Shown here one piece after another: positions 28,827 to 40,038 of a stretch of DNA of 64,000 bases. The stretch's first letter is position 1; every line of letters begins with the position of its first letter. A program made the translations under genes and the position numbers. The notes below the pieces were generated by a model, which saw only the letters and a program-made list of their open reading frames with translations, did no database searches and was not told the DNA's origin. Origin of the DNA: a virus. The stretch lies in the IMG/VR virus record IMGVR_UViG_3300032242_002636, positions 43,455-107,454 of that record. One strand, written 5' to 3'.

Positions 28827-29768
28827 TTAACAATATTGCCATTTATATCCATATGCAGTTTTTCTTTTACCTAAACATACTCTGACTATTGCTTGATATT
28901 TTGCGTTGTTATCTTTAGCTGCTTCTTTTATAGAGTTATATTCCTTTAATAAATTTCCATTTAAATCTATTTTTTTAACTTTTGTTTTATTAAAATTATG
29001 CAATTTTTTTAAATGATTTATAATTTTTATTGTTTTTTTGGGTGATTTTCTGTTTATATGTTTTCTACCAGTATTTAATTTTCTAAAATAAATCGACCAT
29101 TCTTTTTTTGTTTTTTGTGGTTTTTTATTTTTAATTTTTATTTTTTTTTCTTTTTTAATTTTTATTTTATAATTAAAATCATTATTGTTTTCAAATTTAA
29201 AAATAAATTCATTTTTGTATAGTTTATTATATTCATAAAAATTGTTTCTAAAATATACATCAGAGAATTTTTCAATTTTATACATCTCAGTCATAGATGA
29301 ATATCTTTTAATTAAATTACCATACAAATCTGTTTTTAGTATTGGTTTTAATATTTTTTTATATTTTCCTAATCTATGGTTTTCTTTGTTTTTTAAACTT
29401 ATTTTTATCTTTTCTTCTTTTGTCATTTTTCGTTTAATTGGAGGTTTGTTTCCTCCTTTATGTAAATTTAAACCTATTTTAGAACCATTTAAAACATTTG
29501 AATTGTATTTTTTAATATAAAAAATTTCTCTTGAGTTTAGATCAATTTCATTACATTCTTCTAAAACTTCAAATTTATGGTTAATATACCCATATTTTTT
29601 AAAAGATTTAAAAATTAAACTGTTTTTATTTCTTTTTTTATAACAATCATAGTCTCTCTGAAAATATTTATAAGAATTCCATCTAGAACATATGTTTTTT
29701 GATTGTCCTATATAAATTTTATTATTTGGTGATGTTATTTTGTATATTCCCGTTATTTTTTTCATCAT
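28827..29768 (-). mobile_element. free-standing GIY-YIG homing endonuclease with C-terminal NUMOD1-like domain
   Basis: GIYKITSPNNKIYIGQS, R, E and N catalytic pattern; EYNSIKEAA...VCLGKRKTAYGYKW. Very AT- and Lys-rich. The likely start is the second ATG (29765). Confidence 0.9.
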
Positions 29769-30210
29769 TGTTACTTATACATGAAACCATATTTTCGTAA
29801 TATTTTTTTAAACTTTTTGGAGGACGGTTAATTCTAACATTTAAAATTCCATTATATGTATCATCTCTAAACAAAACATTATTTTCTATTTGTAATTTTA
29901 ATTCTTCATATTTTAGTTGCCACTTACAGGTACATAACTTGAGTATTGTTCTTTTAAAGTTTTCCTTACCATGTTTTTTAACATCTTTTTTCAATTCTTC
30001 ACTACTACCATAGTAATCTTTCCAATCTGAGTCGCATATTTTTTTTCTTTTTCTTTTAAATCCTTTCAAAGGTTTTAATTTTATTGTTTTTTTTAACATT
30101 TTACATCCCCAATAATATTTTTTTTCTTTTTGTTTTGCATTTAATCTTTCGATCAAATAGACAAAACCAAACCAATCTTCCAAATTATCAGGTATATTTT
30201 CCCATTCCAT
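29722..30210 (-). CDS. GIY-YIG-like nuclease family protein (start revised to MEWEN at 30210)
   Basis: FGFVYLI...YYWGCK; DWKDYYGSS; GKENFKRTIL; YNG. Confidence 0.75.
   Translation of the reverse strand: MEWENIPDNLEDWFGFVYLIERLNAKQKEKKYYWGCKMLKKTIKLKPLKGFKRKRKKICDSDWKDYYGSSEELKKDVKKHGKENFKRTILKLCTCKWQLKYEELKLQIENNVLFRDDTYNGILNVRINRPPKSLKKYYENMVSCISNNDEKNNGNIQNNITK
29772..29779 (-). promoter_or_regulatory. candidate late promoter TATAAGTA for the homing endonuclease
   Basis: One mismatch to T4 TATAAATA, 6 nt before ATG 29765. Confidence 0.5.
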
Positions 30211-30215
30211 ATTTG

Positions 30216-30231
30216 TACTTATAGGTAAATA
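30216..30231. promoter_or_regulatory. back-to-back late promoters TATAAGTA (-) and TAAATA (+)
   Basis: Each lies exactly 5 nt before its ATG (30210 minus, 30237 plus). Confidence 0.6.
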
Positions 30232-30236
30232 TAACA

Positions 30237-30797
30237 ATGGCTAATACATCTTGCATCTATTGTGGTTCTTCTTCATATGGAAAACCATGTCTTTTTTCTC
30301 CTACCGAAACACATGTTCATATGGATGAACCCGGTAAGTGCATCTATTGTGGATCTCCTTATATAGGAACAGGTTGTATATGGAATCCTTATGGAAATGT
30401 TCATGTAAGAGGGCCAGAATATCTAAATAGAGCCTCTGTACAGAGTGAAAAAGCTGCTGTTTTATCATATATTTTCAATATTGCTAGTTCTCTTTTATCT
30501 GAAGAACATTCTTATACTTCTCCTTTAGATAGATTATATAAGAGAATGGCTTCTATCATTGCTTCCGTAACAGAACCTCTTCTAGAGGCACTCTGTCTTC
30601 AAGAAACACCTACCTACGGAAAGCTCTCAAAGCCAGAACTCATAAAAACTGTAGAATTTAAAAACAAATTTAAAAAACAGTTGGAAGAATTTTCTGAAAC
30701 TTTAAAAGAAGCTTCTTTGGCTTTACCACAGGAAATAGTTGAAAAAACATTAATAGATGCTATAATGAATCTTGATGTTAGAAAAAACAAAGATTAA
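30237..30797 (+). CDS. hypothetical protein with duplicated Cys/His Zn-binding repeat
   Basis: CIYCGSSSYGKPCLFSPTETHVH and CIYCGSPYIGTGCIWNPYGNVHV. Confidence 0.7.
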   Translation: MANTSCIYCGSSSYGKPCLFSPTETHVHMDEPGKCIYCGSPYIGTGCIWNPYGNVHVRGPEYLNRASVQSEKAAVLSYIFNIASSLLSEEHSYTSPLDRLYKRMASIIASVTEPLLEALCLQETPTYGKLSKPELIKTVEFKNKFKKQLEEFSETLKEASLALPQEIVEKTLIDAIMNLDVRKNKD

Positions 30798-31257
30798 GGA
30801 TTTCCTAATCTATTATATTTCACAAAGAATTATAATATTCCCAATATATGAGTATCTTCCTATACTTGCGAATACTATTATAAGAGATTTTCAAGAGTGG
30901 GATCTATTAGAAGGTAAGAAAATTACTCAAAAAGAGAAATACTTTAAATATTTCTTAGAAAAAGAACTTGACAAAATATTAGAAACGTTTATAATATTAT
31001 TTAGGGACCTTAATATTAAAATTATTACAGTATATAAAGAAGTATTACTAAATTCAGAATATTCAGAATTCTTCATAAATTATGAAAACTTTAGTAAAAT
31101 TGTAAAGTATAAAATAAAGAAAAAAACCAAGTACTTCAGGGAAATAAAAAATGATTCTCTATTTCTCAATACTAAAGGATATTATAAAAATATAAGAGTA
31201 GGAATACCTAGTGGAGAAGACCTTGAATTTTTTATTAAACTTAATAAATTAAAATAA
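30772..31257 (+). CDS. hypothetical protein
   Basis: 161 aa, fills the gap between neighbours with coupled stop/start. Confidence 0.65.
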   Translation: MMLEKTKIKDFLIYYISQRIIIFPIYEYLPILANTIIRDFQEWDLLEGKKITQKEKYFKYFLEKELDKILETFIILFRDLNIKIITVYKEVLLNSEYSEFFINYENFSKIVKYKIKKKTKYFREIKNDSLFLNTKGYYKNIRVGIPSGEDLEFFIKLNKLK

Positions 31258-32186
31258 TGGACAAATATTCAATTTTTCATATCGATGGTGGTTGTGGTAA
31301 ATCAATAGTAGGTACTTCTGTTGTTAAATCAATAAAAGCAGCATATCCTGAAAACAAATTAATCGTTGTAACAGCATATCCTGAAGTATTCCTTCATAAT
31401 CCTAATGTTTTTAGAGTATATAAATTTGGAAATATTGCTTATTTTTATGATGATTACATAAAAAATAAAGATACTAAAATTTTCAGAATGGAACCTTATC
31501 ATTCTGGTGATCTTCTTTACAAAAAAAAGCATTTAGCGGAAATATGGTGTGATGTTTTTAATATTCCCTGTGTAACCACAAAACCAGAAATATTTTTAAC
31601 TGAAAGAGAATTAGTTTCTGTTAATAAAGAATTAAACAAACAAGGTCCAGTATTGATTATTCAATCATCAGGAGGTGCTGAAAATCAAAAATATCCTTAT
31701 TCATGGTCTAGAGATTTACCTTCTAATACTGCACAAGAAATTGTTAATGAAGTTAAAGATAAGTTTAGTAAAGTCCTTCATATAAGAAGAAATAACCAAT
31801 TAGAAATTAAAAATACAATTCAACTTTCTGATAATTTTAGAAATCTTTTTTGTTATATTTTCTTAGCTGATAAATTCTTATGTATGGACTCTTTTGTTCA
31901 ACATGCAGCAGCAGCTTTTAATAAATCAGCTACAGTTGGATGGATTTCAAATTCACCTGTTGTATTTGGGCATGAAATTCATACTAATATAATTGCATCA
32001 GGAGAAGAATCATTCCGTCATCGTATTGATTCATATTTAGAATCTGAAGATTGGACAGGTGGAAGGCTTTATGAATGTCCTTATGATAATCTTTCTACTA
32101 TTTTTAATAAACAAGATTTTATAGATTCTATTTTAGAAACAAAAAAAGAATTGCTTTTTCAAGAAAATCCAACTATAATATTCTAA
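31257..32186 (+). CDS. GT9-like (heptosyltransferase-fold) glycosyltransferase
   Basis: IDGGCGKSI; YPEVFLHNPNV; SRDLP; MDSFVQHAAAAFNK (DSxxxHxAxA motif of GT9); VFG. Confidence 0.75.
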   Translation: MDKYSIFHIDGGCGKSIVGTSVVKSIKAAYPENKLIVVTAYPEVFLHNPNVFRVYKFGNIAYFYDDYIKNKDTKIFRMEPYHSGDLLYKKKHLAEIWCDVFNIPCVTTKPEIFLTERELVSVNKELNKQGPVLIIQSSGGAENQKYPYSWSRDLPSNTAQEIVNEVKDKFSKVLHIRRNNQLEIKNTIQLSDNFRNLFCYIFLADKFLCMDSFVQHAAAAFNKSATVGWISNSPVVFGHEIHTNIIASGEESFRHRIDSYLESEDWTGGRLYECPYDNLSTIFNKQDFIDSILETKKELLFQENPTIIF

Positions 32187-32187
32187 C

Positions 32188-33006
32188 ATGATATTTTTTA
32201 ATTCCTCAATGCCGAGAAGTATGTCAACGCTTCTCCAATGTATTCTTAATCAAAATCCAGACATAGCAGCAACTCCTACCGATCCTGTTTTGGAATATCT
32301 TTTTGGTGCTAGGTTGAATTATACAAATACACCAGAGGTTAAGGCTATGGATAAGGAGTTAGCCTTGAGAACATGGAGAGGATTTTGTTGGGGAGGATTG
32401 GAAGGATATGCAAATGCTTATTCATCCAAAGAACATCTTTGTATCAAGACAAGAGGAGGAACAATTCATTATAAATGGTTTGAGGCTTTCATGCCAGAAA
32501 AGCCAAAAATGGTTTGTATGGTTAGAAACCTTAAAAGTATTATTTCTTCAATGGAAAAAATCTATAGAAAGAATCAAGAATCCCATCAGGCAATTCAAAA
32601 TCACTCTGAAATGAAAGGAACCAATACTCCAAAGCGTGTTGATGCTTGGATGGCTTCTCCACCAGTAGGAATGGCATTAGAACGCTTACAGCAGTGCTTC
32701 CTAGAAGGTATCAATAAAGAAGTTCTTTATATTAGAGCCGAAGATTTAACTTCCTATCCACAAAGAGAGATGGATAAGATTTACAAATATCTTGGATTTG
32801 AATCTTTCCAACATGATTTTGATAATGTTGAACAGAGTATTAAAGAAGATGATTCTGTTTATGGATTAACTTCTGATCTTCATACTATCAGACAAAAGGT
32901 ACAACCTTTAACAAGCGATTATACACAGATTTTAGGTAATCAGGTATGTGATTGGATTGATAACACTTATTCTTGGTATCAGAAGGGATTTGGTTATATT
33001 AAATAA
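32188..33006 (+). CDS. sulfotransferase family protein
   Basis: 5'-PSB-like loop SSMPRSMSTLL..ILNQNP; 3'-PB-like MVRNLKSIISS; RAEDLTSYP. Confidence 0.85.
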   Translation: MIFFNSSMPRSMSTLLQCILNQNPDIAATPTDPVLEYLFGARLNYTNTPEVKAMDKELALRTWRGFCWGGLEGYANAYSSKEHLCIKTRGGTIHYKWFEAFMPEKPKMVCMVRNLKSIISSMEKIYRKNQESHQAIQNHSEMKGTNTPKRVDAWMASPPVGMALERLQQCFLEGINKEVLYIRAEDLTSYPQREMDKIYKYLGFESFQHDFDNVEQSIKEDDSVYGLTSDLHTIRQKVQPLTSDYTQILGNQVCDWIDNTYSWYQKGFGYIK

Positions 33007-33074
33007 CTAAATAATCACTTATAAAGATATTTTAGTATAAATTAATCTATAGATATATTATTATTTGTATATAA

Positions 33075-33080
33075 TAAATA
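33075..33080 (+). promoter_or_regulatory. candidate late promoter TAAATA
   Basis: 12 nt before ATG 33093, in very AT-rich DNA. Confidence 0.35.
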
Positions 33081-33092
33081 TTATCAGATTAA

Positions 33093-34970
33093 ATGCATCT
33101 CTTTACAACATATTTTAAATCTACTAATCAAGAAAGACAAAAAGAACTTGATTTTTGTATTAAAAAAAATTGCTTAAATGACATTATATCTAGAATAACT
33201 ATTTTTCTAGATAGTAATACAACAGAAGATGATCTTTATAATTTGGGATTAGATTTAACAAAAATTGATTTTGTTAAAATAAATAGACTTCCAACATATA
33301 AAGATTGGCTTATTAATGGAATTAATTCAAATGAAGAGTTTTTAATTTTTTCTAATGCAGACATTTATTTTAATGAAACACTAGAGGAAATTAAAAAATA
33401 CCCATTAAATGAAAAAGCAGTAATGTGTATTAGTCGTTATGAAGAAACCATAAACGGAATTGAAAAAACAAAATTTTCATTTTTTTCTCAAGATGTTTGG
33501 ATAATAAAAAGAAAAAACATACCATCTATAACCTTTATAGATAATTTGAATATATCTACAGGTGTTGTTAGATGTGACAATAAATTTGCTTATTTTTTTG
33601 CATCTAATGGTTGGGATTTATATAATCCAGTAGAACATATAAAAGTCATACATAGACATGAATCAAATATAAGAACTTATGATTATTATAGTAAAGAAAA
33701 TACTGGTTCTGTAGCATTTGTAGAAGAAAGTCACAATTATATGCCTTCTGAAGTTATGGTTAGAAACGCAAATGTTAATAATCTTAACTCTAATTATAGT
33801 TCTGGTGAAAATATTCCTTTTAATATTAAAACCTATATACATAGAGCTATTATTAATAGATACATTATAGCTAATGACTATGAAAGTTTAATAAAATATA
33901 CACAAGAAGAAAATAGTCCCAAATTGCTTTCAATGGTAATGGAACATTTAGATAAGCATAATGATTTGAACTTTGTAGAAATATGTAAAAATGCTTTACA
34001 AAAAAATAATACAGATATTAAAAATAATTTTTTTAAACCTATTTTAAGTCATTATAAAAAACAACATTTGAGTGGTTGGGGAATTATTAATTGTGAATTA
34101 GAAAATTTTAGTACTACAACTGATGCTATAAATTTAGTAAGTTTTCTTTCTCAATCTTATACTTTATATAATAATAGAATTGAATTTAAACAAACTTTAA
34201 GCAAACCTTGGATCGGTATAGAACATCTAACTAACTATATACCAGAATATTACAATTTTGAAAATAATTCTCATAAATTATTTCAGAATATTAAAGATAT
34301 TGGAGTTCTTGATACATGCAAAGGAATACTTTTTACCTCAGAAACTCAATTAAAAAATCAAATAAACAATCTTTTTTTAAATAATATAAAAAAAGATTTT
34401 ATCTATCATCCTATTATTAGATGTAATTCAAGTATAGATTTTAATTTTAATTTGTTTTTAAATAATAAAAATAAGCAATTGATAAATTTGGGTTGGTATA
34501 ATAGAAACTTTACAGTTTTTGAAAAATTACAAGTTCAAGATTATAAAAAAATATTTGTATTTGGAGGAAAAGATAGCAATTATAGATACAATATATTTCA
34601 AAAAGACTTGCAATACCATAATATTGATAAAGTGACAACAGAAATCGCTCCACATTTAAAGGATAATGAATTAAACGAATTATTATCCAATAATATAGTC
34701 TTTATTAATTTATATGATGCAGCAGCAAATAATGCTATTTTAGATTGTATTGAAAGATCAACACCTATAGTTGTAAACAGATTACCTGCTTGCGAAGAAT
34801 ATCTTGGCAAGGAATATCCTCTTTTTTATGATACTATAGATCAGGTACAAGATTTACTTTCTTTTGAAAAAATATATCTAGCTCATTCGTATTTAAAAAA
34901 TATCGATAAAACAAAATTTACAATGGAGTCTTTTATTACAAAGATAAATCAATTTGTTGAATCATTATGA
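33093..34970 (+). CDS. two-domain glycosyltransferase-like protein
   Basis: N-domain FSNADIYF, SQDVW, CDNKFA, H-x-H (GT-A-like); C-domain VFINLYDAAANNAILDCIERSTPIVVN..A.EEYLG (GT-B-like). Confidence 0.55.
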   Translation: MHLFTTYFKSTNQERQKELDFCIKKNCLNDIISRITIFLDSNTTEDDLYNLGLDLTKIDFVKINRLPTYKDWLINGINSNEEFLIFSNADIYFNETLEEIKKYPLNEKAVMCISRYEETINGIEKTKFSFFSQDVWIIKRKNIPSITFIDNLNISTGVVRCDNKFAYFFASNGWDLYNPVEHIKVIHRHESNIRTYDYYSKENTGSVAFVEESHNYMPSEVMVRNANVNNLNSNYSSGENIPFNIKTYIHRAIINRYIIANDYESLIKYTQEENSPKLLSMVMEHLDKHNDLNFVEICKNALQKNNTDIKNNFFKPILSHYKKQHLSGWGIINCELENFSTTTDAINLVSFLSQSYTLYNNRIEFKQTLSKPWIGIEHLTNYIPEYYNFENNSHKLFQNIKDIGVLDTCKGILFTSETQLKNQINNLFLNNIKKDFIYHPIIRCNSSIDFNFNLFLNNKNKQLINLGWYNRNFTVFEKLQVQDYKKIFVFGGKDSNYRYNIFQKDLQYHNIDKVTTEIAPHLKDNELNELLSNNIVFINLYDAAANNAILDCIERSTPIVVNRLPACEEYLGKEYPLFYDTIDQVQDLLSFEKIYLAHSYLKNIDKTKFTMESFITKINQFVESL

Positions 34971-35719
34971 ATAAGGTACTTTTATTAACACAAGCAAGAC
35001 ATGGATCTACATATTTTATAGATAATTTATTTAAAAAAGGTAATATAGAACAATTTTATATGGAGTATGAATTATTTAAAGAATTTTATTTACAAGACCA
35101 AGATGGACTTTTAGGTTTTGTAAAAAGACATTCCTTAGTAAATTTTGAATTTGAAATTATACAATTAAAAAAATTAAGAAAAACAAATGAAAAAGAATAT
35201 TTTAATACAATTTTTAAAATGTTAGAAAAAAATGCAAAAGAATATAATACTAAAAACTATGGTTTTAAAATTTTTCCTTCTCATGTTTATGGAATGATAG
35301 GAAATAATAAAATAAATTTACAAGAAATAATTTCATTTGTAGATAAAATTATTATTTTAGACAGAGATGATATTGAATTTGCTTATTCATTTGCAAATGC
35401 TATTGTGACAAATAAATGGTCAATTTCTCAGAGACACGAAAAGAAAAGAGTTATTTTAAATAATGAGCAAATAAATAATATTATCAATCAAATTAAATTA
35501 AAAAAAAGATTTTTTGAAGAAGCAAAACAAATAATAAAAGAAACAAATAAAGATTGTTTATATTTACATTATAACAATTTAGGCAAGTCTTATAAAGACA
35601 TTAATAAATTTTTAAATATTGATTTAAAGACTTGGATTCCTTTTGAAAAAAGGAAATATGATTATGAATCTTTTTTAAAAGATAATCCAACCTTGTTAAA
35701 TTTTTTTTATAAAATATAA
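34967..35719 (+). CDS. sulfotransferase-like protein (Stf0-like)
   Basis: LTQARHGSTYF PAPS-binding loop; GFKIF; ILDR...AYS...A..T.KW. Confidence 0.7.
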   Translation: MNKVLLLTQARHGSTYFIDNLFKKGNIEQFYMEYELFKEFYLQDQDGLLGFVKRHSLVNFEFEIIQLKKLRKTNEKEYFNTIFKMLEKNAKEYNTKNYGFKIFPSHVYGMIGNNKINLQEIISFVDKIIILDRDDIEFAYSFANAIVTNKWSISQRHEKKRVILNNEQINNIINQIKLKKRFFEEAKQIIKETNKDCLYLHYNNLGKSYKDINKFLNIDLKTWIPFEKRKYDYESFLKDNPTLLNFFYKI

Positions 35720-35735
35720 AATTTTTAGTTCTTAT

Positions 35736-38699
35736 CTATAAATAAACTGGTATATAACCAATATAATTTCCATTATAATCAAAAGCAGAAACACGTTTTG
35801 AGAATGTACCAAGTGTACCAGCAGTTCCTGTACAATTAAATGCAGGATTTGTCATAGTAACTCTACCTTGTGAACTTAAGTTATTAACATAGGTATAATT
35901 TACTTGTTTAGCACTTAAACCAGAACCTAATAAGAACGTATTGTCATAGTTTGTATAGTTAGCACAACCTCCAGCTATGAAGGAACAAGAACTATTATAG
36001 ATGTAATTGTTTTTTCCACTTGTAATATTTGAACTATCTACAGTACAATTATAAGCGTATATAGTATTACCATGTCCACTTATAATACTGGAATCAAGTA
36101 AAAAGCTTATAGGATACGAATAAGCAGAATTAGAATTATTATTACATAAAGTATTATTAGAACCACCAGAAATACCTAAATTGTTTATTGCACTATTTAG
36201 GTTAGCATTACATATAGTATTATAAGAACCACTAGTAATGTTTGAATTATAAAAATAACCACATGTTGCGCCTCCAGATATACTATTATGAGAGCCACCA
36301 CCTATACTTAGAAAAGAACCGGGATTATAATTACCAAAACCAGAAGAGTTTATTGAATTCGACTGACCACCTACAATACTTGAATACTCTGCATTAATTG
36401 TATTACCACCACCTCCTCCGATATTAGAAGCACCAAGATAAATTGTATTACCAGCACCACCCCCGATATTAGAATTACCACCAGAAACTGTATTAGCATT
36501 TCCACCAGCTATGTTGGAATAACCACCAGAAACTGTATTAGCCTTTCCACCAGCTATGTTGGAATAACCACTAAAAACTGTATTATTTTTACCACCAGCA
36601 ACATTAGAAGCACCACCACAATTAACTAAATTGCTTACACCACCTGCAATAAAAGAACAAGAAGCATTATAAATAAGATTACCATGACCACCTGCTATAC
36701 TAGAATCATTTATATTTCTATTTAAACCGCATATACTATTATTACAACCGCCAACTATAGATGTATTGGAAAGAGTGCCATAGTAACGAACAGAATTAAT
36801 ATTATTAGAACCACCTGCTATAAATGCATTTGAAAGATTGCTATTATTATAACCACAATTACTATTACCACAACCACCTGCTATCGATGTATTTGAAAGA
36901 GTGCTGCATAAACCAATACTATTAATATTATTACAACCACCAGCTATCGATGTATTTGAAAGAGTGGAGCAGTAACCACTATTACTATTACCAGATCCAC
37001 CTGCTATCGATGTATTTGAAAGAGTGGAGCAGTAGCAACCACTATTACTATTACCAGATCCACCAGCTATCGATGTATTTGAAAGAGTGGAGTAGCAACC
37101 ACTATTACTATTACCACAACCACCAGCTATCGATGTATTTGAAAGAGAACTACTAGCACTACAATTGGTATTACTTGAACCACCAGCGATATTTGAATAA
37201 AATATACCTCCACCACTGCTATTACTACAACTACTCGTGCTATTATTATAGCCACTGATAATACCTGAGCTATTTATACAGCTATAACAGGATTTTATAA
37301 TATTGTTACAGCCACCAGCAATATTTGAATTACAAATACAGCCATAATACGGGTATGTAAGTATTGTATTACTACTTCCCCCAGTAATATTTGAATTACA
37401 AATACTAGAATAATAAGCACTATTTGTAGCAATATTGCCACCACAAGTAGGTGTAATAATATTAGCACCTACACTAGTATTATATTGATATACAGATCCT
37501 GCAAAAGCATCACAAAGTAAATAACCAGTCGTTGCATCACAGGTTGCTACATTTGCACTACCAGTACTTGTTGCATATCCAGAGTTTGTTGCATATGTAG
37601 CACTAACAGCAGTACTAGCACTTGTTGCATATCTAGCACTAACAGCACTAACAGCAGTACTAGCACTTGTTGCATATCTAGCACTAACAGCACTAACAGC
37701 AGTACTAGCACTTGTTGCATATCTAGCACTAACAGCAGTACTAGCACTTGTTGCATATGTAGCACTAACAGCACTAACAGCAGTACTAGCACTTGTTGCA
37801 TATGTAGCATTTGTAGCATTTGCAACTGTTCCATTTAAAGAATAAATTGTACCACAAACACAAAGATCGTTTGTATAGGTTGTATTTGAAGCACCAGCTG
37901 TTATGCTTGATCCAAGAATAAAGGAATTATCGGCTGTATTTATTGTATTATTATGACCACCAGCAATAAATGAACAATTAGAATTATAGATTGAATTACT
38001 ATCACCACTTGCAATAGCTGAACCATTTGAAGAACCATAATAACTAGATATGGTATTATTATACCCACCAGCTATATTAGAATTATTTAAAGAACTACGA
38101 TAACAACCAGATATAGTATTATGAGAACCACCAGCTATATTAGAATTTTCAAAAAATACACAATCAGCGTTACTAGTAATTTTATTATTAGAACCACCAC
38201 CTATGTTTAAAGTACTTGAAACTCCCCAACTTATTGGTGAAGCAGTTATTAAATTATTTACACCGCCTACAATACTTGAATAATCTGTATTTACAATATT
38301 ACCACCGCCACCACCGATATTAGAAGCACCACCAGAAACTGTATTACCACCGCCGCCACCGATATTAGAAATTTCACCAGAAACTGTATTACTACATCCT
38401 CCTCCAATATGAGAAGAATTACTGGCTGCATTATTTAAACCACCACCTATTGCTGAGTAATTTCCATAAGCATTATTATTATTACCACCAACTACATTGG
38501 CATATAATCCACCAGCTATATTAGATCCCTTTACTGGTTTAATAGAATTAGTACCAGAGCCAAAATTATAAACATTATCATTAAGCAAAGCAGATAAAGG
38601 AGTCTGATATGTGGTTCCTTGTATATTTGCTATAAGAACTGCACTACCCGATACTGTAAAATTATTAAATGGCAACTGACTAATTTTCTTTGTGGACAT
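35736..38699 (-). CDS. repeat-rich tail fibre/adhesin-like virion protein (start revised to MSTKK at 38699)
   Basis: N-terminal KKISQLP anchor-like motif; dozens of (S)xIxGGxxN beta-solenoid repeats; central Ala/Thr/Ser repeat; C-terminal GYIPVY; perfect TATAAATA 5 nt upstream. Confidence 0.75.
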   Translation of the reverse strand: MSTKKISQLPFNNFTVSGSAVLIANIQGTTYQTPLSALLNDNVYNFGSGTNSIKPVKGSNIAGGLYANVVGGNNNNAYGNYSAIGGGLNNAASNSSHIGGGCSNTVSGEISNIGGGGGNTVSGGASNIGGGGGNIVNTDYSSIVGGVNNLITASPISWGVSSTLNIGGGSNNKITSNADCVFFENSNIAGGSHNTISGCYRSSLNNSNIAGGYNNTISSYYGSSNGSAIASGDSNSIYNSNCSFIAGGHNNTINTADNSFILGSSITAGASNTTYTNDLCVCGTIYSLNGTVANATNATYATSASTAVSAVSATYATSASTAVSARYATSASTAVSAVSARYATSASTAVSAVSARYATSASTAVSATYATNSGYATSTGSANVATCDATTGYLLCDAFAGSVYQYNTSVGANIITPTCGGNIATNSAYYSSICNSNITGGSSNTILTYPYYGCICNSNIAGGCNNIIKSCYSCINSSGIISGYNNSTSSCSNSSGGGIFYSNIAGGSSNTNCSASSSLSNTSIAGGCGNSNSGCYSTLSNTSIAGGSGNSNSGCYCSTLSNTSIAGGSGNSNSGYCSTLSNTSIAGGCNNINSIGLCSTLSNTSIAGGCGNSNCGYNNSNLSNAFIAGGSNNINSVRYYGTLSNTSIVGGCNNSICGLNRNINDSSIAGGHGNLIYNASCSFIAGGVSNLVNCGGASNVAGGKNNTVFSGYSNIAGGKANTVSGGYSNIAGGNANTVSGGNSNIGGGAGNTIYLGASNIGGGGGNTINAEYSSIVGGQSNSINSSGFGNYNPGSFLSIGGGSHNSISGGATCGYFYNSNITSGSYNTICNANLNSAINNLGISGGSNNTLCNNNSNSAYSYPISFLLDSSIISGHGNTIYAYNCTVDSSNITSGKNNYIYNSSCSFIAGGCANYTNYDNTFLLGSGLSAKQVNYTYVNNLSSQGRVTMTNPAFNCTGTAGTLGTFSKRVSAFDYNGNYIGYIPVYL
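36748..37147. repeat. in-frame 60/63-bp tandem repeat (TLSNTSIAGG units)
   Basis: Core CCACCWGCTATCGATGTATTTGAAAGAG at 36874, 36937, 36997, 37060 and 37120, with degenerate copies at 36748 and 36811. Confidence 0.9.
37567..37820. repeat. in-frame 36/45-bp tandem repeat (YATSASTAVSA[VSA])
   Basis: Near-perfect units GCACTTGTTGCATATSTAGCACTAACA(GCACTAACA)GCAGTACTA that differ by a 9-bp sub-repeat. Confidence 0.92.
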
Positions 38700-38704
38700 A
38701 AAGT

Positions 38705-38736
38705 TATTTATATTTATCTCAATAGGAAGGTAAATA
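38705..38736. promoter_or_regulatory. divergent late promoters TATAAATA (-, 38705-38712) and TAAATA (+, 38731-38736)
   Basis: Perfect T4 late consensus 5 nt before the fibre ATG; TAAATA 11 nt before ATG 38748. Confidence 0.65.
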
Positions 38737-39127: not shown

Positions 39128-39400
39128 ATGAAGAATTATTCTGTAGAAAACTTAACCGAAGATCAACTTAGATTGGTAGTCGAAGCATTATTGTTTTCTG
39201 CCTCAACTTCTGTTAATGCACGTTGGTATTCAGAAGAGGATGAATCCTTGATGAAACTTGCTTTGGATCTCAGAAAAAAATATCCAGAAGTTCTTATGAA
39301 GAATATCTTCATTCTAAAAGAAAAGGAATATCATGATCAATTCGCAGGAGATATTGTTGATTATTTCCCTGAGATCGTAGAAACCGCACCAGTTTTATGA
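39128..39400 (+). CDS. hypothetical protein
   Basis: 90 aa, ATGA-coupled to the kinase gene. Confidence 0.7.
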   Translation: MKNYSVENLTEDQLRLVVEALLFSASTSVNARWYSEEDESLMKLALDLRKKYPEVLMKNIFILKEKEYHDQFAGDIVDYFPEIVETAPVL

Positions 39401-40038
39401 AAATAGCCGTATCAGGTACACATTGCCAAGGAAAAAGTACTTACATAAAAGACTTTTTGAAAACATGGACTAACTATAAGACACCAGAAAAGTCTTATAG
39501 AGATTACATCAAGGAACAAAACCTTCCACATTCTAAAGAAGGAACCGAAGAGAGTCAGCAGATTATTCTCAATGCTCTTCTTGATCAGGCACAGGAATAT
39601 TCAAAGAATGATAATGTCATTTTTGATCGTTGTATTCTTGATAATCTTGCCTATTCTTCTTGGCTTAATCTTAACGGAAAAGTTTCTGATAAATTCTTGG
39701 ATGAATCAAGAATCCTTATCCGTGAAGCACTCAAGACTTTTGATGTAATTTTCTTTGTTCCTCTTACAAAGGTTGCACCTGTAGAATTCAAAGAAGATGA
39801 TCTTCGTGACAATGATCTTGTCTACCGTGAGGAGATTGACAACATCTTTAAGGTATTTGTTCAGTCTTTCCATCAGGGAGACGGAAGAGTATTTGCTGCT
39901 GATGATGCTCCTCCTATCATTGAAATCTTTGGTAATCCTATTGAGCGTATTGAAATGACAAAGCTCTATATTACAGAAGAGGGACAGCCATATGGAGAAG
40001 ACAAGAGTTTAATTTCTGACATTTATACAGGTATCTAG
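39397..40038 (+). CDS. P-loop nucleoside/nucleotide kinase-like protein (AAA_28/NadR-like)
   Basis: IAVSGTHCQGKST; FDRCILDNLAY; D..R.....R lid. Confidence 0.8.
   Translation: MKIAVSGTHCQGKSTYIKDFLKTWTNYKTPEKSYRDYIKEQNLPHSKEGTEESQQIILNALLDQAQEYSKNDNVIFDRCILDNLAYSSWLNLNGKVSDKFLDESRILIREALKTFDVIFFVPLTKVAPVEFKEDDLRDNDLVYREEIDNIFKVFVQSFHQGDGRVFAADDAPPIIEIFGNPIERIEMTKLYITEEGQPYGEDKSLISDIYTGI

Follow-up and report, generated by a model that had tools for sequence, protein, structure and literature searches.

The region described here lies in a window of 64,000 nucleotides, corresponding to bases 43455-107454 of the 107,454-base IMG/VR virus record IMGVR_UViG_3300032242_002636, which is ~51 % complete. 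It contains five genes, here designated A to E, for two glycosyltransferase-like proteins, two sulfotransferases and a large fibre. Gene A (31257-32186, + strand) encodes a GT9-like glycosyltransferase of GT-B fold (309 aa), and gene B (32188-33006, +) a TPST/NoeE-like sulfotransferase of Sulfotransfer_3 (272 aa), i.e. of the type dependent on 3'-phosphoadenosine-5'-phosphosulfate (PAPS). A spacer of 86 nt separates B from gene C (33093-34970, +), coding for a two-domain glycosyltransferase-like protein of 625 aa, which is followed by gene D (34967-35719, +) for a NodH/Stf0-like sulfotransferase of 250 aa. Gene E (35736-38699, - strand) encodes the fibre and stands tail to tail with D, the two stops (35719 and 35736) being 16 nt apart. 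The virus itself is a T4-like myovirus with a family-B DNA polymerase, a gp46/47-type recombination nuclease, helicases and a baseplate wedge, and possesses many other glycosyltransferase genes besides A and C. The region yielded no megablast match among INPHARED phages, and thus no close DNA relative there.

A sequence-only reading of the window had placed the five genes at these same positions and had taken A-B and C-D for two glycosyltransferase-sulfotransferase pairs of one system that sulfates a glycan, possibly on the fibre. What it observed is partly confirmed, and its interpretation is partly supported: the proposed chemistry was strengthened by the present analysis, the proposed target was not.

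Enzymes and fibre encoded at the locus

The assignment of B as a sulfotransferase is borne out by Pfam matches above cut-off (PF13469 Sulfotransfer_3, 2e-10, 41.7 bits, cut-off 27; PF00685 Sulfotransfer_1, 31.1 bits, cut-off 22) and by the presence of both PAPS-binding motifs. The 5'-phosphosulfate-binding (5'-PSB) motif reads P9-R10-S11-x-S13-T14, and across 25 homologues P9, R10, S13 and T14 are invariant, as are R113 and S121 of the 3'-phosphate-binding (3'-PB) motif. The best NCBIfam model is that of the Nod-factor sulfotransferase NoeE, while among solved chains the family profile of B comes nearest to protein-tyrosine sulfotransferases (TPST1, 1.4e-9; TPST2, 5e-6).

For D, a search through 1.8 billion cluster representatives gave no more than 19 relatives; a word-based homologue search recovered D alone. 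A profile of 18 sequences nevertheless matches the NodH lipopolysaccharide (LPS) sulfotransferase 9vki at E 2.4e-5 over a stretch spanning both PAPS-binding motifs, one relative matches Sulfotransfer_1 at 7.8e-7, and the Atlas model of D resembles sulfotransferase clusters with template-modelling (TM) scores of 0.62-0.73. Within the family, R11 and G13 of the 5'-PSB motif are nearly invariant and R133 and S141 of the 3'-PB motif invariant. The spacing of eight residues between R133 and S141 equals that between R113 and S121 in B and that in the canonical 3'-PB motif. The earlier description of D as an Stf0-like sulfotransferase thus holds for the enzyme class, on the strength of fold and NodH profile match, but not for membership in the Stf0 family: D gave no match to PF09037 at E values up to 10 and no Pfam match on its own, and just 14 % of its nearest Atlas cluster carry PF09037. 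A scan of the genome with PF09037 was likewise without match, its controls, however, being silent as well. Since the families of D and B align with only 31 % probability in hhalign, the two are not close paralogues. Both come out as sulfotransferases and not as kinase folds, the outcome that would have undone the earlier assignment.

For A, 458 homologues were found. A model computed from 30 of them (AlphaFold2, pLDDT 81) has a GT9 enzyme as its best Foldseek match (3tov, E 1.5e-11, TM 0.68), followed by WaaF (1psw), WaaC and TibC, so that the proposed GT9-like nature is upheld by fold. Sequence searches were silent in this respect: A matched neither PF01075 (GT9; E up to 10) nor any other Pfam family, NCBIfam heptosyltransferase models remained far under cut-off (E 0.04-0.07), and no usable solved chain was obtained by a single-sequence PDB search or with the A2 family profile. 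In the 30 homologues D10, D211, S212, Q215, H216 and A220 are invariant and A218 and A219 nearly so. Residues 211-220 (DSFVQHAAAA) presumably correspond to the GT9 nucleotide-sugar motif D-S/T-G-x-x-H-L-A-A-A and D10 to the catalytic Asp, the equivalence with WaaC having been judged by eye. TibC structures (4rb4/4rap) are matched at E 7e-8 to 3e-7, which is no better than the match to LPS enzymes. Four Cys residues of A are conserved (C13, C98, C199 and C274); heptosyltransferases of the TibC/Aah type possess an iron-binding cysteine site and assemble into dodecamers.

C has ten relatives only, and its overall model is poor (pLDDT 57, worst between residues 190 and 445). Residues 1-200 form a GT-A domain (VIA Z 13.6 with a chondroitin polymerase subunit and 13.1 with SpsA; Foldseek ~1e-5), the stretch 437-625 is similar to the GT-B-like enzyme SenB (Z 10.4), and in the ESM Atlas C falls among viral GT1/GT2 clusters, all of which agrees with the two-domain glycosyltransferase-like protein recognised before. 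Searched alone, A, C, D and E retrieved nothing usable from Pfam, PHROGs and NCBIfam, and single-sequence PDB searches with C and D were empty or returned noise. No membrane helix is predicted in any of the proteins A to D.

Fibre E comprises 987 aa if translation starts at the ATG at 38699. It consists of two UspA1/YadA-type head-repeat blocks with GGxxN motifs (37 in total) and a neck of ATYATSASTAVSA repeats between them, and contains 37 Cys. Ser (17.6 %), Asn (15.4 %), Gly (15.1 %) and Thr (8.4 %) together make up 56.5 % of its residues, in agreement with the Ser/Thr-packed fibre noticed at the outset. In phmmer, the repeats match the head of the Moraxella trimeric adhesin UspA1 (3pr7) at E 7e-11 in two clear stretches. 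The N-terminal K-I-S-Q-L-P motif is common to fibres of related phages, and E has neither a Pfam match of any kind nor a hydrophobic segment, an autotransporter C-terminal anchor or a signal peptide. E therefore shares the adhesin repeat but does not belong to the adhesin family.

Conservation of the A-B unit and supply of the sulfate donor

Scanning IMG/VR with A yielded 80 loci, from which, together with the window, 1329 open reading frames (ORFs) were called and clustered. Dereplication at 90 % identity of A resulted in 41 lineages, the window included. In 35 of these, B and A lie no more than 3 kb apart, and in at least 23 the two genes are direct neighbours. Their arrangement takes three forms, namely A-B, B-A and B-x-kinase-nucleotidyltransferase-DUF2061-A. 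Around the unit are found genes for a 2104-aa fibre bearing an endosialidase-chaperone domain, for E-like fibres, for the tail sheath and for T4-type baseplate proteins, and in most lineages the module is situated among structural rather than replication genes. The complete relative G001 (202,880 bp) harbours only two ORFs with at least six GGxxN motifs, both of which are 1-6 kb away from A-B. The expected co-occurrence of sulfotransferase, glycosyltransferase and fibres across phage genomes is accordingly met with for the GT9-like enzyme and B, a pair kept beside fibre genes in many phages. In one jumbo-sized genome (304 kb), two separate A-B units flank two E-like fibre genes.

Further sugar enzymes adjoin A-B in relatives: FkbM methyltransferase, GT2/GT92, GT8 and GT4 enzymes and a protein with a TOD1/MUCI70-like domain. 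Because such enzymes, including a sugar-type O-methyltransferase, steadily accompany the unit, its product is likely to be a glycan. Loci with A but without B have 2-oxoglutarate (2OG)-Fe(II) oxygenases among their neighbours, next to a fibre. At one of them (L015:6929-9932), A comes after a run of genes, two of which were tested and came out as 2OG-Fe(II) oxygenases; downstream of A a 1109-aa GT1-FkbM-GT2-CmcI methyltransferase fusion is encoded, and upstream a 1732-aa fibre.

A 140-aa adenosine-5'-phosphosulfate (APS) kinase, the type of enzyme that produces PAPS, is part of the module in 25 of the 41 lineages (PF01583, 1.8e-12; profile against solved APS kinases, 8e-19). A 132-aa HxGH nucleotidyltransferase, nearest to NadM-type nicotinamide mononucleotide adenylyltransferases (NMNATs), is found in 26 lineages and lies beside the kinase in 25 of these (e.g., L032:11282-11680, +); a DUF2061 protein, for which the literature gave nothing relevant, follows the nucleotidyltransferase in 23. 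Since most of the distant lineages link A and B with an APS kinase, PAPS-dependent sulfation is the safest part of the interpretation. Five carrier genomes, two of them complete, revealed no canonical ATP sulfurylase or CysD; the sole ATP-sulfurylase signal in them was below threshold and located inside the nucleotidyltransferase gene. The NMNAT-like protein might act as a minimal ATP sulfurylase or else as an adenylyltransferase for sugar phosphates. In genome G002, the A of which is 69 % identical to that of the window, a full-length 180-aa CysC-type APS kinase (L084:1495-2037, equal to G002:C1:10330-10872) is encoded 80 kb from A-B, next to a glycosyltransferase-like gene.

The clade nearest to the window (loci L003-L013; A 65-77 % and B 76-80 % identical) has no kinase beside the unit, and none is found beside it at L014 either, the contig of which stops just after A. 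In this near clade, convergent fibre genes directly follow A-B, and the interval between B and the fibre is a hypervariable slot. At L010 an FkbM methyltransferase is inserted between A and B, and a GT2/GT92 enzyme together with a TOD1/MUCI70-like protein follows B; extra fibre genes fill the slot at L004 and a leucine-rich repeat protein that at L003. C and D occupy it, among the IMG/VR loci with A, only in the window and in its 99 % twin L002. The GC content of D and of the 3' half of C is 22 %, compared to 30-34 % nearby, which makes C and D look recently imported. IMG/VR scans with the nearest relatives of D and of C found nothing. A second sample of the same study contains a 35-kb contig with A, B, C and D together at ~99 % identity; its contigs leave the middle of the fibre gene uncovered and show many odd joints, a gap read as repeat-driven assembly breakage and not used as evidence. 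The view of both glycosyltransferase-sulfotransferase pairs as one system is therefore not sustained: A and B are old and conserved, C and D a recent, strain-specific insert.

Expression and candidate acceptors

Late-type promoter motifs are present at three positions of the locus. The T4 late-promoter consensus TATAAATA (38705-38712, -) precedes the ATG of E by 5 nt, the late-promoter-like GGTAAATA (30224-30231, +) lies 5 nt before the ATG of p186, and the likewise late-promoter-like AATAAATA (33073-33080, +) lies between B and C, 12 nt ahead of the start codon of C. The sequence (G)GTAAATA was found 5-13 nt before the start codon of many ORFs of this phage. Its core TAAATA, of which the window has 103 copies, is enriched in the 40 nt that precede ORFs (in sense orientation 27 of 119, versus 8 in antisense and 12.3 ± 3.3 in shuffles). 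Of the TAAATA motifs said to head each pair, the one at 33075 does stand before C, whereas the other (30226) stands before p186 and not before A, so that the first operon comprises p186-p161-A-B.

p186 (30237-30797, +), the first gene of this operon, matches no family and contains two copies of a C-x-Y-C-G-S-x3-G-x2-C motif, which might bind zinc as a pair. p161 (30772-31257, +) codes for a conserved small protein, and its stop overlaps the start of A. Both genes precede A throughout the near clade, to which p186 is restricted (51-99 % identity). Directly upstream of the operon (28827-30237, -; GC 24 %), HNH/NUMOD and GIY-YIG SegE-like homing endonucleases are encoded; relatives have a GIY-YIG homologue on the opposite strand and lack the HNH gene. 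Near the start of the fibre gene, a 213-aa P-loop protein (39397-40038, +) is classified as thymidylate kinase by PHROGs but as AAA_28 (NadR-kinase-like) by Pfam; it is not an APS kinase.

Upstream of A, promoters of another type were also detected. A perfect sigma-70-type promoter, TTGACA-16-TATAAT, one of three such sites in the 107-kb record, is located inside p161 (30968-30995, +). It is kept perfect at L002 and L003 and with 11 of 12 positions at L004, L006 and L007, the hexamers being retained while the spacer varies. A second site (30739-30766, +; 11 of 12 positions, with a TG extension) lies within the p186/p161 coding sequence. Early genes of the phage carry sigma-70-type promoters. 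The late expression proposed earlier is in line with the late-type motifs before p186, C and E, but the conserved sites upstream of A render late-only expression doubtful. Among the listed sequencing runs in which the stretch occurs, none is recorded as RNA.

The reading preferred here, at somewhat less than an even chance, is that a surface protein of the phage is glycosylated in the cytoplasm and sulfated at the expense of PAPS, the neighbouring fibre being the first candidate. According to this scheme, A to D would be soluble enzymes of the cytoplasm that assemble a short glycan and use PAPS to sulfate it. The old two-gene core of A and B, which probably act on one product, is kept in the fibre/tail module by many uncultured myoviruses, many of which add an APS kinase, an NMNAT-like nucleotidyltransferase and a DUF2061 protein of their own; in the window phage, C and D are recent arrivals in the slot facing the fibre genes, as a second transferase and a second sulfotransferase. 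The acceptor would be a phage-made surface protein, above all the UspA1-like trimeric fibre E next to the unit, which would be modified while in the cytoplasm and prior to assembly, and the resulting virions would carry sulfated sugars on their attachment organ. Gene position and the absence of export genes point to a phage surface protein as acceptor, which in this clade may be the GGxxN fibre. TibC-type GT9 enzymes, which glycosylate adhesins, may serve as a precedent of a kind.

Several observations weigh against this reading. The only pointer to the fibre as the putative acceptor is the position of its gene, and the N-x-S/T sequences with which E had been described as packed are not in excess: 42 sites compare with 39 ± 5 in composition-preserving shuffles and thus follow from composition. 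Enzymes of the GT9 family usually act on the LPS core and those of the NodH/LpsS type commonly on LPS, and B, its nearest solved relatives being protein-tyrosine sulfotransferases, need not act on a sugar at all. The sigma-70-type promoters suggest that A and B are also transcribed early. Finally, the search for an APS kinase called for by the sequence-only reading had a negative outcome: the 107 kb available of this ~51 % complete genome contain no PF01583 match and no tblastn match to the APS kinase, NMNAT-like or DUF2061 families, and the complete genome of the relative G001 likewise lacks an APS kinase. The sulfate donor must therefore come from the host or from a gene in the unsequenced half.

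The main rival is remodelling of the host envelope, in which the enzymes, working on the inner side of the membrane, would attach sugar and sulfate to LPS core, capsule or exopolysaccharide precursors of the host. Superinfection could thereby be blocked, progeny be kept off debris or the surface of the infected cell be altered. This rival is unlikely, but several features speak for it, namely the LPS heptosyltransferases among the best fold matches of A, the annotation of the nearest solved relative of D as an LPS sulfotransferase, the match of B to NoeE and the sigma-70-type promoters, which would permit early expression. The missing membrane helices do not exclude it, as enzymes of the WaaC type are likewise soluble or peripheral. 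Against this stand the constant placement of the module within fibre/tail modules across all three gene orders, the late-type motifs and the neighbourhoods themselves, in which multi-pass membrane proteins are nearly absent among the 1329 ORFs, so that no flippase, polymerase or ligase is apparent. Moreover, the phages appear to be lytic and T4-like, which would leave little time for surface renewal. A single lineage (L078:14418-20678, -) encodes two multi-pass membrane proteins without Pfam match (1493 aa, ~11 helices; 550 aa, ~7 helices) 3.5 kb from its A-B unit.

Sugars might also be bypassed, B and perhaps D directly sulfating a protein of phage or host on Tyr, Ser or Thr, with A and C making a separate glycan. 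This is decidedly improbable. The TPST1 and TPST2 matches of B speak for it, as does the resemblance of its MPRSMSTLL stretch to the PRSGTT loop of TPST; the match is, however, mostly confined to the PAPS-binding core, and the proximity of A and B in 35 of 41 lineages suggests one product. Tyr accounts for 6 % of E, but TPST sites are acidic and E is nearly devoid of acidic residues (Asp 1.3 %, Glu 0.3 %), and the Tyr of the repeats looks structural because the aligned UspA1 head repeats hold it too. A further point in its favour is that sulfation of tail-collar and collagen-like proteins was predicted previously for bacterial operons (Iyer et al. 2010; PMC2938197).

Least probable is a product detached from any protein or envelope, i.e. 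a sulfated small molecule or oligosaccharide, or a glycan on the phage DNA as in some T-even-like phages. The many other glycosyltransferase genes of the phage would fit this possibility, and DNA-hypermodifying phage glycosyltransferases are known (Pyle et al. 2024, as cited in PMC12619734). The module is found among structural genes in most lineages, though, and neither the phage's own record nor the complete G001 contains a ThyA-family hydroxymethylase. The hydroxymethyl base needed for the T4 route would thus be missing, and the T4-style DNA glycan was rejected.

Relation to known systems

Generalized beyond the window, sulfation of their own attachment fibres would be a trait of many aquatic myoviruses, with a GT9-like enzyme adding the sugar to fibres of the UspA1 type or to others rich in Ser/Thr/Asn, a TPST/NoeE-like enzyme the sulfate, a viral APS kinase serving the latter and the NMNAT-like protein being a minimal ATP sulfurylase; in this full form the proposal is rather doubtful. 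If true, it would be the first case of a sulfated virion structure in a bacterial virus and would bring a new chemical layer to phage-host recognition, in which the negative charge of the fibre could alter adsorption, host range and stickiness to polysaccharides or mucus. Those phage sulfotransferases whose function papers call unclear would likewise gain a concrete role, and viral cysC would be recast from an auxiliary gene of sulfur assimilation to a donor supply for structural modification. The window itself shows an extension of the unit, by a second transferase and a second sulfotransferase dropped into the variable slot by the fibre.

Virion glycosylation has been proven for a few mycobacteriophages and giant viruses. 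The literature searched for phage sulfotransferases in connection with tail fibres, glycosyltransferases or cysC contained no description of the A-B unit and no report on sulfation of any phage structure. This agrees with the earlier statement that no phage pathway of this kind has been characterised, which needs qualification only in that cultured cyanophages do have annotated sulfotransferases. Those of the Synechococcus phages S-SKS1, S-SRM01 and S-SCSM1 belong to the Pfam family of B (26-30 % identity), and in S-SRM01 the gene adjoins those of a glycosyltransferase and a sugar epimerase; apart from one unannotated marine virus record, the GT9-like partner A was seen only as a distant match in two Pelagibacter podophages. 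INPHARED yielded no cultured carrier of the A-B unit, the nearest record being that of the unannotated marine virus MH319754. Sulfotransferases were also annotated in OM43 phage genomes, where their role was called unclear (PMC10580990), and viral cysC is listed as an unvalidated auxiliary gene of sulfur assimilation (PMC12713726).

Bacterial operons combining a dioxygenase, a sulfotransferase and a PAPS synthetase were predicted to carry out hydroxylation and subsequent sulfation of co-encoded tail-collar/collagen-like proteins (Iyer et al. 2010; PMC2938197). They share with the present locus the co-encoded fibre-like protein, and some A loci hold several 2OG-Fe(II) oxygenases by a fibre; they differ in being bacterial, in lacking a glycosyltransferase step and in their status as a prediction.

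Dedicated sugar sulfotransferases (NodH, NoeE, LpsS) occur in rhizobia in the same gene set as PAPS-making genes (NodPQ). D resembles NodH, B resembles NoeE, and relatives of the window phage carry an APS kinase. The rhizobial system is, however, bacterial, acts on lipo-chitooligosaccharide or LPS and includes a canonical CysDN-type sulfurylase, whereas the phage modules are without a canonical ATP sulfurylase and the available half of the window phage is also without the kinase.

In the TibC/Aah system, a cytoplasmic enzyme of GT9 fold glycosylates Ser-rich, beta-structured adhesin repeats of TibA/AIDA-I before export. The parallel lies in TibC being among the fold matches of A and in E being an adhesin-type repeat protein; on the other hand, A fits LPS-type GT9 enzymes at least as well, the repeats of E are of the trimeric UspA1/YadA type and not of the AIDA type, and the TibC/Aah system involves no sulfation.

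A close counterpart in phages is found in the Che8-type mycobacteriophages (Freeman et al. 2023, as cited in PMC12619734). There, too, genes for soluble phage glycosyltransferases stand next to structural genes, and the enzymes modify virion proteins of the phage itself in the cytoplasm. The acceptors in those phages (capsid and tail tube C-termini) are proven experimentally and sulfation is not part of the system, whereas the acceptor proposed here is putative. A to D also belong to other enzyme families and include sulfotransferases, with a PAPS supply in relatives.

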